Counted from the first letter of the stretch, positions 1,864 to 22,554 are shown. The stretch is 64,000 nt of DNA from a virus (IMGVR_UViG_3300032030_000030:1-64000), one strand, 5' to 3'. Numbers and translations: made by a program. Notes: generated from the sequence alone by a model not told the origin.

Positions 1864-2301
1864 ATGGAAAAGTTAATTAAGGCTATCGTGAAGGGCCTTA
1901 CCTTCACAACTCCCGAAGGCACAGAGGTGTCAATTGACGAACTTGCAAACCTCAGTGCAGCAGACATCCGCTCTATGGGCATTGCTGTAAACCAGGCAAT
2001 CAAGCAGTACACTGGTGAAGGCGACCCTGACTTCGGCACAACCGACAAGAAGGTTCCGCAGGCACTCATTGTTAAGCGCGACGTCCTCAAAGGATTCCTC
2101 GCTTACAAGGAAGAGGATGCCAAGAAGGCAGAGAAGAACCGTACCGCCAAGGCTGAACTCGAAATCGTAAAGGAAGCCGAGAAGGAGATGAAGCTCGCTA
2201 AGCTCCGTGGTCTCTCCGAGAAGGAGAACAAGGCTAAGCAGGACGAGTTGAACGCAATCATCGCTTCTACCAGCGACGACGACGACGATTGGGAGGAGTA
2301 G
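1864..2301 (+). CDS. hypothetical protein, coiled coil with acidic tail
   Basis: ATG at 1864 after A-rich leader, strong codon bias, ends SDDDDDWEE, followed by terminator. Confidence 0.85.
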   Translation: MEKLIKAIVKGLTFTTPEGTEVSIDELANLSAADIRSMGIAVNQAIKQYTGEGDPDFGTTDKKVPQALIVKRDVLKGFLAYKEEDAKKAEKNRTAKAELEIVKEAEKEMKLAKLRGLSEKENKAKQDELNAIIASTSDDDDDWEE

Positions 2302-6306: not shown

Positions 6307-7272
6307 ATGTTCTCAAAGGTCAACATAGGCATAACAAAGAATGAATTGTCTATGAGGATTTCTGATGAAGACATTTTGAGATATTACTTCAATATCGACA
6401 AGTGCAAAGTAATTAGCAGTCCATTTAGGCAAGACAGGAACCCAAGTTTCGCTTTGTACAAAACTAATGGTCATATATATTTTAAAGACTTCGCAACAGG
6501 AGAAACTGGAAGTGTGTATGATATGGTAATGATAAAAGAAGGCTTGACGTTTAAGGAGTGTCTAAAAAAAATAGCGAACGATTTTAATATCAAATCTTGT
6601 TCTTATACTTGTGTAGGCATGGGCCAATCATGGGATATTGCCACGCAAGAAGAGGAGAAAACTGATATTCAAGTTCGTATACGCAATTGGACTTTTGAAG
6701 ACAAGAAATATTGGAATAGTTATGGGATAGACTTAGAATTTCTGCGAGAATTTGAAATCTATCCTATTGACTATTTCTTTATAAATGGCAGGACGATAAA
6801 GGCAGACACGTTGGCGTACACCTACGTTTATAGACAAAACGGCAAGGTTTATCACAAAATATACCAGCCGTTGTCTAAAACAAGAAAGTGGCGCAACAAT
6901 TATCCTCACGGCACAATGTCTTTGATAGACTATGTAAGCGATGACTGTGAAAACATAGTCGTTTGCTCGTCTGTCAAAGACGCTTTGTGTCTATGGTATA
7001 ATACAGGCGTCCCGTCAATAGCTCCGCAGGGAGAAGGATATGATGTTGATTTCGCACAGTTAAAGGTTAGGTTTCCAAAAGCGAAATTTTGCATCTTGTA
7101 TGACAACGATGCCGCAGGCATTAGATATTCGACATCACTGTCGGAGAAATATGGGATTCCTGTGTTATTCCTACCAAAGATGGAGAAAGGGAAAGACGTG
7201 TCTGACCTTTACTATTATTATGGAAAGGAAGTATTACTAAGTACAATGCAGGAATTATGGCAACAGCAATGA
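6307..7272 (+). CDS. DnaG-type primase
   Basis: SPFRQDRNPSF...FKDFATGETG N-domain; TOPRIM SSVKDA, YDNDAAG, KDVSD. Confidence 0.9.
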   Translation: MFSKVNIGITKNELSMRISDEDILRYYFNIDKCKVISSPFRQDRNPSFALYKTNGHIYFKDFATGETGSVYDMVMIKEGLTFKECLKKIANDFNIKSCSYTCVGMGQSWDIATQEEEKTDIQVRIRNWTFEDKKYWNSYGIDLEFLREFEIYPIDYFFINGRTIKADTLAYTYVYRQNGKVYHKIYQPLSKTRKWRNNYPHGTMSLIDYVSDDCENIVVCSSVKDALCLWYNTGVPSIAPQGEGYDVDFAQLKVRFPKAKFCILYDNDAAGIRYSTSLSEKYGIPVLFLPKMEKGKDVSDLYYYYGKEVLLSTMQELWQQQ

Positions 7273-7580: not shown

Positions 7581-8297
7581 ATGGCACACGCAACAAGAAG
7601 ACCAATCTTATTTCAGTGTAACAAGTTGCCAAACGGCGGCTTCAAGACTCTTTTGACCTCTGCGTCAACACTGTCCGAACTCAGAAGGGACATCATCCAG
7701 AACACCCCGTTGACAAACACGGAGTTGACGAAGTTCATGTTCGTCCTCAATGGCGAGCAGTTGACAGAAGGCAGCGTCATTCCATTGTTCAACTCTTGTG
7801 CAGGCGTAACTAACCCCTCAGACCCCAAGGTTCAAGTTCTCATCAATAAGTTCAGAACTGACCCGACAGCAGAAGAGTTCCTTGCCATCTCTATGGCAGA
7901 GACTGCGAAGAACACGGCGTCTGGTAGCAGTATTGCTGAATCCTGCAAGTTCTTGGAAGAGAACGGAATGGTCGATGCTTTCAAGGAAGAGTATGGCGTT
8001 CAGCCAGAACTCGCCAGTGCTAAGGTTCTCGACGCCTACGTTTCCAAAATCATCAGTGGAAAGGTCAAAAAGAGTTCTACTGCCACAGCAGTAACAAAAG
8101 CTCCGACAGACCAGGTTGAACAACTCAAAGCTGAGAACAATCGCTTGAAGCAGAGAATTGCCAATCTTGAGGGCTACATCGCAGGATTCAAGGCAGGCAA
8201 CAACGACGACGACGATGATGACAACGACTGGGAAGACGACCCAACTCCGTCGGACGCTGAAGAGATTCAGGTTGACATGAGCAAACTCAGACGTTAG
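7581..8297 (+). CDS. putative ubiquitin-like (beta-grasp) precursor protein
   Basis: N-terminal pattern TSASTLSELRRDI...FMFVLNGEQLTEGSVIP resembles a beta-grasp fold; domain ends ...KNTASG (G115); adjacent to JAB and E1 genes. ORF is solid, fold is inferred. Confidence 0.55.
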   Translation: MAHATRRPILFQCNKLPNGGFKTLLTSASTLSELRRDIIQNTPLTNTELTKFMFVLNGEQLTEGSVIPLFNSCAGVTNPSDPKVQVLINKFRTDPTAEEFLAISMAETAKNTASGSSIAESCKFLEENGMVDAFKEEYGVQPELASAKVLDAYVSKIISGKVKKSSTATAVTKAPTDQVEQLKAENNRLKQRIANLEGYIAGFKAGNNDDDDDDNDWEDDPTPSDAEEIQVDMSKLRR

Positions 8298-8298
8298 T

Positions 8299-8327
8299 AA
8301 CACAACACAACACAACACAACACAACA
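8299..8327 (+). repeat. (AACAC)n pentanucleotide tandem repeat, ~5.8 copies
   Basis: Directly visible after the stop codon. Confidence 0.95.
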
Positions 8328-8330
8328 TTA

Positions 8331-8361
8331 GGAAGCCGCTCTATCAGGGCGGCATCCTTTT
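8331..8361 (+). terminator. intrinsic terminator
   Basis: GGAAGCCGCTCT-ATC-AGGGCGGCATCC then TTTT. Confidence 0.7.
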
Positions 8362-8377: not shown

Positions 8378-9742
8378 ATGACAAATGAAGAAATGGAGTC
8401 ATACACTCGTGCAAAGGCTTTGAGGCTGATGATGTATTTTGCAGCCTATCCTGTAAGAAAGTGTGTTGACGTATTTAAAAAATTCTTCGGGGCAAGGGAA
8501 GTTGATTCGACTATCTTTTATTCCAACTGGAAAGAATATATGCTATATGTATTTTGTCGCAATACTCGCACACTTTCCTCTTGGTTTGATGGAGGTTCTT
8601 ATGATGACACTGTTGATATGTCGCTTAGCAACATATTAGATTCTGTCCGAATAACTGCACCATCAGACCAAGAGAAAGTATATGAGACATTCTTGCGTAT
8701 ACGCGAGAAAGACAAAAATATGGCAAGATACTTTGTCAAATGGGTATCAATATTGTGTGTACGATATGACTCTGACCATTATAGTTCTGAAATTGAAAGA
8801 ACAGGTAGCACTCCGTCATTTCGTGAGCCACTCATTTACGTTCATATACCGAAAGCGACGGTAACTTTGAACGAAAATGACTTACTCAAACACGATATCT
8901 ACGATATGTTCTTTTCCGTGTCTTGTACATATGGCATTCTTGGAGACAAGCGAACGTCTTTGCATCATAATCAGACTTCAATCAGGGGTGCAAGAAGTAC
9001 GTTTACTGCTGAAGAGGTGTCGTATTTGTACGTTCACAGCCATCGTCCTGACATGAACTCTGAGCATCCGCTGGCTTTCGACACACAATGTACTGGTGGT
9101 TTGGGAACTCCATTAAACCAACTTGTATACTCGATAAAGGAATATATGCGAGACCGTAATGTCCATGAGTTATCAAAGGCTTTGACAGAATTGTTTTGCA
9201 TCAATCTTAAGACATATGTTGGAGTGGAGTCGAATACAGGCGGTGCGTACAAACACATAGAACGTCTCGGAGCCTCATCATTGAATCCTGTTTATAGGCA
9301 ATGCATAAAAGAAACATATTCTGCCGACCAAAGATTCTTAGACAAAATGCTTGAGATGAACAGCAAGTATCATTTTGTAAAATTCGTAGCATCTAAAACT
9401 CGAATTACGTACGGAATGGCATTTACTGACATTGCTTTTGCATTATCAGATTTGGCATATGTAACTCAAAAAGAGTTGAAGGCTGTCAATTCAAACTGGT
9501 ATATGAAAGCGGCACTGGCTACAGATGGCAGAATTGTGCATATTGGCGACGGTGGGTCTTCTATACCAAGCTATATGTTAGAATCAATGGCATCAATTAT
9601 CATCAACGGCAAGAAATATCGTTTCAAAGAACATGAAGCGACAACCGACCGTCCCCGAATGAGAGTATTGAAGCAGCCTTATTTTGAGTCTCTCTTCATA
9701 CAATTCATATCTTACGTAAACAAAAAGTTACAAGAAAAATGA
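8378..9742 (+). CDS. putative E2-like (UBC-fold) protein
   Basis: YVHSH(220-222)...QCTG (C238) resembles HPN/HPH...CLG of E2 enzymes; gene context. Confidence 0.5.
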   Translation: MTNEEMESYTRAKALRLMMYFAAYPVRKCVDVFKKFFGAREVDSTIFYSNWKEYMLYVFCRNTRTLSSWFDGGSYDDTVDMSLSNILDSVRITAPSDQEKVYETFLRIREKDKNMARYFVKWVSILCVRYDSDHYSSEIERTGSTPSFREPLIYVHIPKATVTLNENDLLKHDIYDMFFSVSCTYGILGDKRTSLHHNQTSIRGARSTFTAEEVSYLYVHSHRPDMNSEHPLAFDTQCTGGLGTPLNQLVYSIKEYMRDRNVHELSKALTELFCINLKTYVGVESNTGGAYKHIERLGASSLNPVYRQCIKETYSADQRFLDKMLEMNSKYHFVKFVASKTRITYGMAFTDIAFALSDLAYVTQKELKAVNSNWYMKAALATDGRIVHIGDGGSSIPSYMLESMASIIINGKKYRFKEHEATTDRPRMRVLKQPYFESLFIQFISYVNKKLQEK

Positions 9743-10980
9743 AACAAAACAAAATCAAATGCATCTTAACTCCGCTTTTGATGGCAAAAGTGCAGTATAT
9801 GTGCAACCTCCGTCCAAGCAATGAATGGAGTGGCAACATATACTACACCTTCGAGAAGAACGAAGACGGAGAAACGACATTGACTGTCAAGGACCTTGCT
9901 TTGATGGAGTCTTATGGTTCAGAAGCGTTTACGCATTTCAGCAATACTGATGTGTATGCAACTGACTATATTGCTCAGCATCGCAAGTTGTTGGGTTGTT
10001 ACATGGGCTTGTTGCACAGTCATCACAATATGACTTGTGGTCCATCAGGCACAGATGACAACACGATGAATAAGGAAGCAAATGCTCCTGACAACAACAA
10101 CTTCCTGTCAATAATCGTATACAACAACCGCAACATCACACCGTACAGTGTTCGTATCTCTCAGCACGTAAGGCATGAGGTCTTGCCTGGCGATATGTTC
10201 TCCAATGAGTTCGGAACAGAGTACAATGAAGGCAAGTCTCCAAAACTTTGGAAACCAAAGTTGGAGACTGAGATTCTCACAATCGACAAAGACAGCGTTG
10301 TCTATTCAGACCCTTTCTGGACTGATGCAGAAAAGGAAGAGTTTGAGAAGAGGGTGAAAGTGCTTGACGACAAACACGCCGAGCAACAGAAACCAAAGAT
10401 TGTGCCTGCAAACGTAGGGGTTTCCTATCCTTACAGGCGAGATGACGACGACGACATTGATTGGGACACCGAAGACTATTATGGCTATGGTTATCATCAT
10501 GGCGGTTACTACGCTGCAAACGTGAAGAACACGAGCGTCACAATGACAACAAAGGTTACTCCGTTCAAGCGTACATACAATTCCAATATCGACGGTTTGT
10601 TCCCGTCTCAAATTGCAAGGATGTTGTTGAGGCTGTCTTACACAACAGGCCCGTCATTCTATAATGCAAATGAAATGGACGAGGCTCTCAAGAAAATCGA
10701 AGACGATTTCTACTTGATTGCAAACAGCATGAGCGACTACAAAAAAGTGCTGAGAGTTGCGCTTCCTCCGCTTCTTTCATTCATAGCATCATTCTACAAA
10801 GATGGCATAACAGGTTACACATTCAAGAACGACCTCACGATTGCCTTTTCCAGAATAAAGGAAAGTTTGTGGAGCCAGACTGCGGAAGTCAAGACAATTT
10901 GCACAGAACTCATCAAGTCAACAAAGACAATAGTTGACGCAGCCGTTAAAGCGAAGAAAACAAAAAATAAGAAGAAATGA
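9739..10980 (+). CDS. JAB/MPN+ (JAMM) metallopeptidase domain protein
   Basis: E29 (NEWSG) plus H93-S-H95-x7-S103-x2-D106. Confidence 0.85.
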   Translation: MKQNKIKCILTPLLMAKVQYMCNLRPSNEWSGNIYYTFEKNEDGETTLTVKDLALMESYGSEAFTHFSNTDVYATDYIAQHRKLLGCYMGLLHSHHNMTCGPSGTDDNTMNKEANAPDNNNFLSIIVYNNRNITPYSVRISQHVRHEVLPGDMFSNEFGTEYNEGKSPKLWKPKLETEILTIDKDSVVYSDPFWTDAEKEEFEKRVKVLDDKHAEQQKPKIVPANVGVSYPYRRDDDDDIDWDTEDYYGYGYHHGGYYAANVKNTSVTMTTKVTPFKRTYNSNIDGLFPSQIARMLLRLSYTTGPSFYNANEMDEALKKIEDDFYLIANSMSDYKKVLRVALPPLLSFIASFYKDGITGYTFKNDLTIAFSRIKESLWSQTAEVKTICTELIKSTKTIVDAAVKAKKTKNKKK

Positions 10981-11891
10981 ATGCATCAATCATGGCACAA
11001 TTGGCGGCAGAACTCGACCAACAATTGGCTTTGGCTGCTCAGCTTGAGGAAACACCGCAACCTGAACAGCCAGTAGCAGAAGAGCCGCCAGCAGAGCTTG
11101 AACAAGCGATTTCACAAGAATTAGAGGCTGAGCTTCCTGTGCCACCACGCAACTTCTTAGAGTCCGACCAGAGTACAAGGTACAAAGGTGCGGATTGGTA
11201 TGAGAAGATAAGAAGGCAGAAATGCGTAGTTATCGGTGCAGGTGGAATAGGAAGTTGGGTTATCTACTATTTGGCAAGGGCTTCTATCGGTATGATAACA
11301 GCCTACGATGGTGACACTGTTGATACAGTGAACCTCGCAGGTCAGTTGTACCGTACAAAAGACCTTGGTCATTTCAAAGTAGACGCATTGCGAGAAATCG
11401 TCATGGAATATGCACCTACATTGCAAGGTTGTTTCTATTCCGATTTCTACGTCAATGAACCATTGGACAAGATAACTATTACGGCACTTGATTCTATGAG
11501 AGCAAGAAGGCTTGTCTTCGACAACTGGGTTGCACAGACGAAAGGTCTTCCAAAAGAAGAAAAAAGCAAATGGGTGTTCATTGACGGACGTATGTCTGCC
11601 AATTCATACCAGGTGTTTGTCTTTCGTGCTTCCCAAGAGGACAAAATCAAAATGTACGACAAGAAATGTCTTTTTGATGACAGCCTTGCTGATGCTACCG
11701 CTTGTTCTTTCAAGGCTACGTCGCACATAGGAGGCGGCATTGGTTCTTACATCATGTCTCTGGTACAAGAGCATCTGCACTTGGAAGATGATGGAATGTT
11801 TGAAACCAACATAAAGTTCTTCAACGAGTTCGACACCTCGTTTGGTATTACATTAAAACAACAGAAAACATGGCAATATCGAAAGGCCTGA
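10977..11891 (+). CDS. ThiF/E1-family adenylyltransferase
   Basis: VIGAGGIGS, DGDTVDTVNLAGQ, ALDSMRAR, DGRMS, candidate catalytic Cys in ATACSFK. Confidence 0.9.
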   Translation: MNASIMAQLAAELDQQLALAAQLEETPQPEQPVAEEPPAELEQAISQELEAELPVPPRNFLESDQSTRYKGADWYEKIRRQKCVVIGAGGIGSWVIYYLARASIGMITAYDGDTVDTVNLAGQLYRTKDLGHFKVDALREIVMEYAPTLQGCFYSDFYVNEPLDKITITALDSMRARRLVFDNWVAQTKGLPKEEKSKWVFIDGRMSANSYQVFVFRASQEDKIKMYDKKCLFDDSLADATACSFKATSHIGGGIGSYIMSLVQEHLHLEDDGMFETNIKFFNEFDTSFGITLKQQKTWQYRKA

Positions 11892-12376
11892 TACGAAATT
11901 TCATTCAATGTTTCCTTCGGAAGTACATTGAGCCAGGGTCTCCCGATATACCTGTTTCGTGGTTTTCTCGTGATACTGTCAATACTCCGATAGGACAGTT
12001 GTTTGTAAAAGATGTTTCTGTATCGAAGATAAAAGACTTTCTTAATCTTAGGATGAATCAATGCGAATGTCTCAGGGTTCATCACGGAAGCGAGATAGTC
12101 TATATGTCACGCAGTGGAATAGTAACATCTCAATTCAGACCACTTCTTATTGTTGAAGGCGACAGTCAAAACCGAACGTACAAAATATCAAGGCTTGTCT
12201 TCGAGTATGACAAGTCTTGGTTTTGTTTTATAATCAGGAAATATTTGGCAACAGATATTCTTGATTATACTCGCAAAGACGTTCAACTGAGCGGCGGAAT
12301 CACGTCGTTTATGGCAGAAACCAGGCTGGATAAGAACAAGGTAACGAAATTCGTAGCAGAACTAAACGGCAAATGA
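11870..12376 (+). CDS. hypothetical protein
   Basis: ORF overlapping E1 end. Confidence 0.7.
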   Translation: MAISKGLIRNFIQCFLRKYIEPGSPDIPVSWFSRDTVNTPIGQLFVKDVSVSKIKDFLNLRMNQCECLRVHHGSEIVYMSRSGIVTSQFRPLLIVEGDSQNRTYKISRLVFEYDKSWFCFIIRKYLATDILDYTRKDVQLSGGITSFMAETRLDKNKVTKFVAELNGK

Positions 12377-22174: not shown

Positions 22175-22325
22175 AAGGGGAACGCTGTTTGTTAACGGCA
22201 AAAGACTCTGTGAAATGGATGACACAGAGTTAAATAAAGAAATTCATTCAAATCCAGATTGGTATGAGCGTCAACTCGCTCAGCAAGAACTTAAATACCG
22301 TGAAGAAGATGACAACGAAGAATGA
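22143..22325 (+). CDS. small hypothetical protein
   Basis: ORF bridging neighbours. Confidence 0.55.
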   Translation: MTLQTLGFSYRRGTLFVNGKRLCEMDDTELNKEIHSNPDWYERQLAQQELKYREEDDNEE

Positions 22326-22554
22326 TGGTTTTGTTGACTACAACACCGACGACGACTGGGATGGTATTGATGACGACGGTTGGTATGGTGATGAAGACGA
22401 GTATCCAGAAGACCCGTTTGTTGACCCGTACTATCCTTACGACCCTGGATACGACCCTCGCTATGACGACGACTATGACGATGACGATGACGATGATGAA
22501 TGGGATGACATTCTCAGCGACCTCGACGGCTATGACAACAACGACATTTACTAA
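22309..22554 (+). CDS. very acidic Asp/Tyr/Pro-rich small protein
   Basis: 81 aa dominated by Asp, GAC/GAT codon periodicity. Confidence 0.7.
   Translation: MTTKNDGFVDYNTDDDWDGIDDDGWYGDEDEYPEDPFVDPYYPYDPGYDPRYDDDYDDDDDDDEWDDILSDLDGYDNNDIY

Follow-up and report, generated by a model that had tools for sequence, protein, structure and literature searches.

A proposed ubiquitin-like precursor with an internal glycine and a candidate processing cassette in a crAss-like phage

A four-gene cassette behind the primase gene

A crAss-like gut phage is the source of the 64,000-nucleotide stretch analysed here, which we call the window and from whose first letter all coordinates are counted. Directly behind the primase gene (6307-7272), the window carries a cassette of four genes on the + strand. 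The first of these (7581-8297, +), taken from the ORF list, encodes a 238-residue protein made up of a ubiquitin-like (Ubl) domain and a C-terminal cargo. It is followed by the gene for a 454-residue Cys/His protein (8378-9742, +), which alignment and structure comparison suggest is probably an E2-like carrier. The third gene (9739-10980, +) encodes a 413-residue JAB/JAMM metallopeptidase that we propose as the processing enzyme, and the fourth (10977-11891, +) a 304-residue E1 adenylating enzyme of the ThiF type. The JAB gene overlaps the 454-residue gene by 4 nt at its start and the E1 gene by 4 nt at its end. The gap at 8300-8353 separates the precursor gene from the three overlapping enzyme genes and is the only intergenic gap of the cassette. 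It contains about five copies of a five-base unit (8300-8327) and, next to them, a terminator-like hairpin (8335-8353, +) of 8 pairs, 6 of them G-C, followed by a T run; the hairpin comes from a consensus scan only, in which sites of this type were no more numerous than in shuffled sequence. Behind the E1 gene lies a 168-residue ORF (11870-12376) that has no Pfam match and no homologue among the ORFs of 83 related loci, and an iterated search with it returned only itself.

Related loci were collected with a JAB alignment as the query, which gave 437 relatives in IMG/VR, and 80 of these loci were taken; the same search with a Ubl alignment confirmed nothing. The order Ubl precursor, E2-like protein, JAB and E1 was kept in 81 of 81 untruncated loci, each with the homologue of the 238-residue protein in the same place after the primase gene, and such a homologue was found there in every locus whose sequence extends that far. 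Furthermore, the cassette is syntenic in cr111_1, in a Kehishuvirus of the crAss001 group and in Flavobacterium phage FpV4, and the records of crAss001 and DAC15 contain counterparts of the 238-residue protein, gp79 and DAC15_91. A tblastn search of the 238-residue protein against GenBank phages gave no match, and its link to the crAss001-type proteins rested on synteny and profiles. No account of such a cassette from crAss-like phages turned up in the literature searched, which covered papers available without a subscription.

The JAB protein matches PF14464 (Prok-JAB) only weakly, with an E-value of 2.3e-4 that falls short of the cutoff of that family, and the PADLOC JAB model with 4.7e-7. 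Its JAMM residues E29, H93, H95, S103 and D106 are complete and are invariant in the comparison with cr111_1, Kehishuvirus and FpV4. The preliminary description had named a neighbouring JAB as the enzyme that cuts the precursor; an intact JAMM peptidase does belong to the cassette, but it is not adjacent, as the 454-residue gene lies between the two. The E1 matches PF00899 (ThiF) with 80.4 bits against a cutoff of 28.1 (E 1.5e-22) over a single domain, residues 71-245, and its PDB matches are Uba4, Uba1, MoeB and Cap2. Across 79 sequences its GxGGxG motif, D111, D113, K134, D172...R177 and C243 are invariant, the last in all 78 sequences that have a residue at this position.

The 454-residue protein belongs to no Pfam family, and its structural model has a pLDDT of 61. 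Residues Y218, H220, S221, H222, C238 and G240 are invariant in its alignment (A5), with H220-S-H222 and C238 as candidates for the HPN-like motif and the catalytic Cys of a UBC core. A wide VIA-align search with the model returned UBC-fold chains as more than half of the top 50 matches, including Ubc9, Ubc13, E2S, RWD and UEV domains and the E2 domain of Cap2, with Z-scores of only 4.5-6.6. Foldseek gave no match with E<=0.001 for the same model, and the Atlas search gave nothing clear. We regard the protein as probably E2-like, a weak assignment. The cassette proteins showed neither a sulfurtransferase nor a rhodanese domain, no CD-NTase is present, and no DUF6527 (BubE) gene was found among the adjacent genes scanned.

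The ubiquitin-like domain, its Ser-Gly boundary and the cargo

An AlphaFold2 model of the 238-residue protein was built on a 13-sequence alignment and has a mean pLDDT of 71. In its N-terminal part (residues 1-115; 7581-7925, +) the model places strands at 7-13, 21-26, 52-56, 59-61 and 101-107 and a helix at 31-41, which is the secondary-structure order of a beta-grasp fold (b1-b2-a1-b3-b4-b5) with an insertion. The inserted helix, 82-93, is part of an insertion of about 26 residues that is absent from most other clades. Segment 109-116 is predicted with a pLDDT below 50, and such low confidence is consistent with a flexible tail.

Structure searches with this domain led consistently to ubiquitin. 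Foldseek against the PDB returned LC3, ubiquitin and ISG15 as nearly all of the 50 matches listed, with probabilities of 0.97-1.0, E-values around 3e-3 and TM-scores of 0.64-0.69 relative to ubiquitin; sequence identity to the eukaryotic ubiquitin and Ubl matches is 10-18%, and the likeness is one of fold only. VIA-align superposed the domain on 70-75 of the 76 residues of ubiquitin with an rmsd of 2.2-2.5 A and Z-scores of 7.2-7.8, which are middling by themselves; a Z below 8 is not decisive alone, and the confidence of the model is moderate. A search of BFVD, a collection of predicted structures from viruses, ranked uncharacterised proteins from the crAss-like phages cr126_1 and cr111_1 and from Flavobacterium phage Fpv3 highest, ahead of the ubiquitins of giant viruses, pestiviruses and baculoviruses. 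Because the matches agree with one another and cover the whole ubiquitin fold, we consider the beta-grasp assignment sound for the predicted model. Residues 1-115 are therefore predicted to form a ubiquitin-like beta-grasp domain with a floppy tail that ends in S114-G115. Model residues up to 110-114 pair with ubiquitin residues 74-76, and thus G115 would occupy the position of ubiquitin G76. Searches of the 238-residue protein against Pfam, PHROGs, NCBIfam and PADLOC gave only weak matches to coiled-coil families or families of unknown function, and a profile search against PDB sequences gave only coiled-coil noise.

The boundary between the two parts of the protein reads ...AKNTASG|SS, and the codons of S114-G115 (TCT GGT; 7920-7925, +) mark the proposed JAB cut site, after G115. 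This placement draws on the invariance of the site, its low pLDDT, an indel hot-spot beside it and relatives in which the gene is split. In 86 distinct full-length homologues, which form 21 clusters below 60% identity and include the crAss001 gp79-type, cr111_1 and Flavobacterium phage FpV4 proteins, the only columns that are 100% invariant are T30, P68, S114 and G115; K110 is kept in 99%, and all 21 clusters have ...K-x3-S-G at the boundary. The longer pattern E-x2-K-x3-S-G is kept in close and distant homologues from two protein databases, and K110, S114 and G115 are still invariant in the cr111_1, Kehishuvirus and FpV4 proteins, at about 20% identity. Judged from these alignments, the invariance of SG is more than chance. 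The number of residues before SG is about 89 in most clades and 112-124 in the clade of the window, which is explained by the insertion. The residue after SG is usually Ala, Ser or Gly, and immediately behind SG lies an indel hot-spot of 0-17 residues, beyond which a conserved domain resumes. The C-terminus of the precursor itself varies among homologues (RR, GA, FV, GR and others). As G115 is internal, processing would be needed to expose it.

Much of the preliminary description is borne out at this point. It had stated that the protein ends in ...KLRR and not in Gly, which the 238-residue translation (...SKLRR) confirms, and that a putative Ubl domain ends at KNTASG115, in agreement with the sequence, the model fold, Foldseek and VIA-align. 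The Gly that it placed at the domain boundary proved to be conserved, with SG invariant in 86 of 86 full-length homologues. It had also proposed to check whether conservation drops right after SG; the alignments show more than a plain drop, as a variable linker of 0-17 residues gives way to a second conserved domain.

A few database entries stood apart from the full-length set. Two short, probably truncated fragments, P0058 (...KKIRS-V..., with SV) and P0066 (...KIK-L-G-A..., with LG), are the only exceptions to SG that we saw. Additionally, a 128-residue protein (P0013) was considered as a natural short form and rejected, as it resembles a frameshifted copy of P0009, and a 576-residue protein (P0014) was rejected as a fused form, being a repeat protein that matches in low-complexity sequence only.

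The part that follows G115 agrees with the short helical domain, coiled coil and acidic stretch described earlier, all of which are visible in the model and the sequence, and a short C-terminal motif comes after them. The model places a three-helix domain at residues 116-158 (7926-8054, +; helices 116-127, 131-138 and 147-158). Its column information is comparable to that of the Ubl domain, it is kept across clades, and it gives the impression of a SAP/HeH-like domain. A long helix or coiled coil is modelled at residues 176-205 (8106-8195, +), which include EQLKAENNRLKQRIANLE and have weak ZapB, DivIC and bZIP matches; a Pfam search with residues 176-218 gave only weak matches of coiled-coil type. 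Next is a poly-Asp stretch with a Trp (residues 207-220; 8199-8240, +), in which D211-D214, D216 and W217 are invariant in six close homologues. The protein closes with a short motif, S-D-x-E-E-I-x-V-D-M..KL (8250-8288, +), the counterpart of a (S/P)YSDxEIDxMF motif that ends most homologues and is kept in this form across clades; S224, A226, I229, V231, D232, K235 and L236 are invariant in alignment A1. Pfam searches with 13 members and a search of the ESM Atlas gave nothing usable for the C-terminal part, and no family.

A poly-Asp run with Trp and further acidic residues is common to four ORFs of the window (1864-2301, 7581-8297, 9739-10980 and 22264-22554), in the forms DDDDDW-EE, DDDDDDNDW-EDD, DDDDDIDW-D and DDDDDDDEW-DD. 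The Ubl precursor and the JAB are among the four, and the run may be a shared docking motif. In phage cr126_1 (L088:3001-3927, MT774391) the precursor has 308 residues, and the part after SG contains a ribosomal bL12 C-terminal domain (PF00542, E 5e-12, residues 158-220). Translational GTPases are the usual binding partners of this domain, and neither the 80 IMG/VR loci nor DAC15_91 nor crAss001 gp79 was found to contain it.

Relatives in which the gene is split

In three of the related loci (L022, L023 and L034) and in the GenBank genome of cr106_1, the gene is in two pieces, split right after SG, and both halves are kept. An HNH homing-endonuclease gene of the HNH_3/NUMOD type lies between the halves, placed within one residue of the Gly; the published cr106_1 genome has the same split, with the endonuclease annotated as HNH. 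The stand-alone Ubl ORFs have 91-92 residues. Those of the three IMG/VR loci have 91, the last of which are ...KKI(K/R)SG and two more, and their stop codon is TAA. The C-terminal ORF of these loci is separate and begins with M-N-T-N-N-M-T-R. A search for short relatives found stand-alone 91-residue Ubls in 19 distinct clusters at 90% identity, some of them on contigs of about 100 kb. The tails after SG are KF, IC or IY, always two residues, and none of these proteins ends at the Gly.

With the N-terminal domain of the unsplit Kehishuvirus protein (crAss001 group) the Ubl of cr106_1 shares 82% identity, but with the Ubls of L022 and L034 only 56-59%. Among themselves, the endonucleases of the split phages are 64-80% identical, and thus one endonuclease family sits at the same site in two Ubl lineages. 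The inserted gene is a free-standing endonuclease gene and not part of a group I intron, a candidate that we rejected, as the gaps gave no Rfam match at the gathering score or at E<=1 and the stand-alone Ubl ORFs end with TAA while the downstream ORFs start at their own ATG. The same search was able to detect such introns, since it found one (RF00028, 84.8 bits) at L034:8830-9073, downstream of the cassette.

Purifying selection acts on both halves of the split gene: dN/dS is 0.09-0.10 in the Ubl ORF and reaches 0.34-0.44 in its C-terminal counterpart. The split phages have kept their JAB and E1 motifs intact. In L022 the endonuclease gene has decayed, and both flanking ORFs are intact. That the C-terminal part is conserved and survives in these phages as an ORF of its own supports the earlier suggestion of a second functional product. 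As the split genes show, the two halves can work unlinked and do not need the bond behind SG; it does not follow that the uninterrupted protein is cleaved. The preference of homing endonucleases for conserved target sequences could by itself bias insertion towards the SG codons.

The split loci also have peculiarities of their own. The HNH ORF of L023 (2689-3207) has to be translated with Trp at two in-frame TGA codons to stay open (M-E-I-W... and G-A-I-W-Q), positions at which L034 and cr106_1 have TGG, and one of the two TGA codons is also present in L022 (2971-3218). Either TGA is a Trp codon in these phages or the gene is decaying. The C-terminal ORF of cr106_1 (L087:2731-3123) has a different and shorter first helical segment, M-T-R-N-E-L-I-A-E-A-K-R-L-G-F..., and only its last 86 or so residues match the Kehishuvirus protein of the crAss001 group, at 33% identity. 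Judged from this comparison, the front of the cr106_1 cargo appears to have been replaced.

Proposed processing and its relation to known systems

The fold, the invariant SG, the linker behind it, the natural separability of the halves, the intact catalytic residues of the JAB and E1 and the strict linkage of the genes are computed observations. From these we infer that the 238-residue precursor is cut after G115 and that the JAB of the cassette is the enzyme that cuts it, a reading with which all the computational tests that we ran agree and to which we assign a probability of roughly 70%. In the proposed pathway, residues 1-115 would form the beta-grasp Ubl, with the invariant S114-G115 at the end of its flexible tail, and the JAMM peptidase (9739-10980) would cut the peptide bond after G115. 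The cut would expose a C-terminal Gly for adenylation by the ThiF-type E1 (10977-11891), with C243 as its conserved cysteine, and the Ubl would then probably be handed to C238 of the E2-like protein (8378-9742) and from there to its targets. The same cut would release a second polypeptide, residues 116-238, which would have its own role and consist of the helical domain, a linker, the coiled coil, the acidic stretch and the C-terminal docking-type motif.

More broadly, and only tentatively, we suggest that crAss-like phages, crAss001 and DAC15 included, run their own ubiquitin-type tagging from the replication gene block. The tag would be synthesised fused, one to one, to an adaptor that is conserved and associated with replication, so that one JAB cut yields equal amounts of tag and adaptor, and in some lineages a homing endonuclease cassette with its own stop and start codons would have made two genes of the one. 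If this is true, the fusion is a viral counterpart of the eukaryotic ubiquitin-ribosomal-protein fusions.

Other explanations of the locus have to be weighed against cleavage followed by conjugation. The 238-residue protein might never be cut, with the beta-grasp domain serving as an integral interaction module of the Rad23/Dsk2 type and the JAB and E1 acting on another substrate. Many Ubl-domain proteins are indeed unprocessed, and the conserved C-terminal part could need the Ubl as a built-in handle. Integral Ubl domains are usually without a terminal Gly. An uncut protein is also at odds with the invariance of SG, with the variable linker right behind it and with the occurrence of the halves as separate ORFs in several phages. 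Furthermore, the cassette has no other small Gly-ended protein beside the E1, and the C-terminus of the precursor is not conserved. We consider a protein that stays whole quite improbable. Conversely, the protein might be cut after G115 and its C-terminal part be no more than a pro-peptide, a timing or inhibitory device or a docking handle for the JAB or E1 that is functionless once released. The lack of a recognisable family for this part and its dN/dS of 0.34-0.44, above that of the Ubl, would fit such a role. Its helical domain and C-terminal motif are nevertheless conserved across clades, it persists in split phages as a free-standing ORF that has a start codon to itself, even beside the decayed endonuclease of L022, and in cr126_1 it has gained a ribosomal bL12 C-terminal domain, all of which makes a disposable pro-peptide very unlikely.

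Cleavage after G115 would also be compatible with a Ubl that is not conjugated at all. The E1 could form an acyl-adenylate or thiocarboxylate, as for ThiS, MoaD, CysO and QbsE, for sulfur transfer or another small-molecule reaction, and the 454-residue protein would be an enzyme of that chemistry and not an E2. JAMM trimming of sulfur-carrier precursors is known from QbsD/QbsE and Mec+/CysO, the E1 is small and of the single-domain ThiF/MoeB type with ThiF, MoeB and Uba4 as its best family matches, and the E2 assignment is weak. UBC-fold proteins nevertheless account for over half of the top structural matches to the 454-residue protein, the gene order Ubl, E2-like, JAB and E1 is that of BilABCD, the profile matches of the E1 and JAB include the CBASS Cap2 and Cap3 models, and the cassette proteins show no sulfurtransferase or rhodanese domain. 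Taken together, these points make a sulfur carrier unlikely, and we favour cleavage by the JAB with conjugation of the mature Ubl.

So far, the Ubl conjugation systems characterised outside eukaryotes are bacterial defences against phages (Bil, Bub and type II CBASS); here a phage would own the machinery, and its family counts the most abundant viruses of the human gut among its members. The proposed precursor form and cut position make the system testable and predict the substrates of the JAB and the E1. They would also define the mature Ubl, residues 1-115 here and 1-90 in the crAss001-type protein. The partners of the second protein that the cut would release may reveal the purpose of the pathway, and in the genes split by endonucleases nature has run an experiment on the domain boundary. 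The cassette is present in relatives that are in culture (crAss001 gp76-gp79, with gp77 as the JAB; DAC15_91 and its neighbours), and direct tests are therefore possible.

The design of the precursor is shared with eukaryotic proteins. UBA52, RPS27A, FUBI-eS30, Atg8, UFM1, SUMO and NEDD8 are all made with a C-terminal extension or cargo and cut after the terminal Gly. The cargo of the ubiquitin-ribosomal protein fusions is a working protein, and Atg8 and UFM1 end in a single Gly, as the phage Ubl would. The eukaryotic processing enzymes are mostly Cys proteases and not JAMM enzymes. JAMM enzymes do act in the QbsE/QbsD and CysO/Mec+ pairs, where they trim a small beta-grasp carrier behind its Gly, either before the E1 acts or afterwards. 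QbsE has a two-residue tail, and in this it is similar to the split phage Ubls with their SG+2 ends. In contrast, QbsE and CysO serve sulfur transfer, have no E2-like partner and carry short tails, whereas the phage extension is a conserved protein of 123 residues.

Type II CBASS offers a further likeness, as the phage JAB and E1 score best against the CBASS JAB and E1-E2 profiles of PADLOC and the structural matches of the 454-residue protein include the E2 domain of Cap2. However, CBASS conjugates the C-terminus of a CD-NTase and not a Ubl, and the phage cassette is without a CD-NTase.

The earlier statement that JAB peptidases mature Ubl precursors by cutting after Gly has precedents in Bil and Type I Bub. 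Chambers et al. (10.1101/2023.09.26.559546) describe BilC, a JAB protein, as pre-processing BilA to expose its C-terminal Gly and as a deconjugating enzyme, and the cleavage assay that they report used an artificial BilA-GFP fusion. The phage cassette matches Bil in gene order (Ubl, E2, JAB and E1) and in three of the four identities, while the phage E2, whose structural matches are weak, is only a probable counterpart. BilD is, as described in PMC11601596, a large E1 with adenylation domains, inactive and active, in tandem and a mobile Cys domain, whereas the phage E1 is a single ThiF domain in a protein of 304 residues. Furthermore, Bil is a bacterial anti-phage defence and the phage cassette is viral.

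Type I Bub provides a close parallel to the proposed cut. There BubAB, in which a Ubl is fused to an E2, is cleaved by the JAB domain of BubCD right behind the conserved G229, which yields two working proteins (Ye et al. 2024, PMC11601596). As in the phage protein, the Ubl is N-terminal in the fusion, and cleavage by the cognate JAMM enzyme after the conserved Gly is what we propose for the phage. The partner behind the Ubl is an E2 in Bub, whereas in the phage it is a helical, coiled-coil protein and the E2-like gene is separate. JAB and E1 are fused in Bub and coupled by a 4-nt gene overlap in the phage cassette. The phage E1 keeps an invariant C243, in contrast to BubCD, which is without a catalytic Cys and uses oxyester chemistry. 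Bub also has the serine protease BubE (DUF6527), none of which is seen next to the phage cassette, and unlike Bub the cassette is encoded by a virus, within its replication gene block. Overall, the phage protein resembles the Bil and Bub precursors but belongs to neither family.
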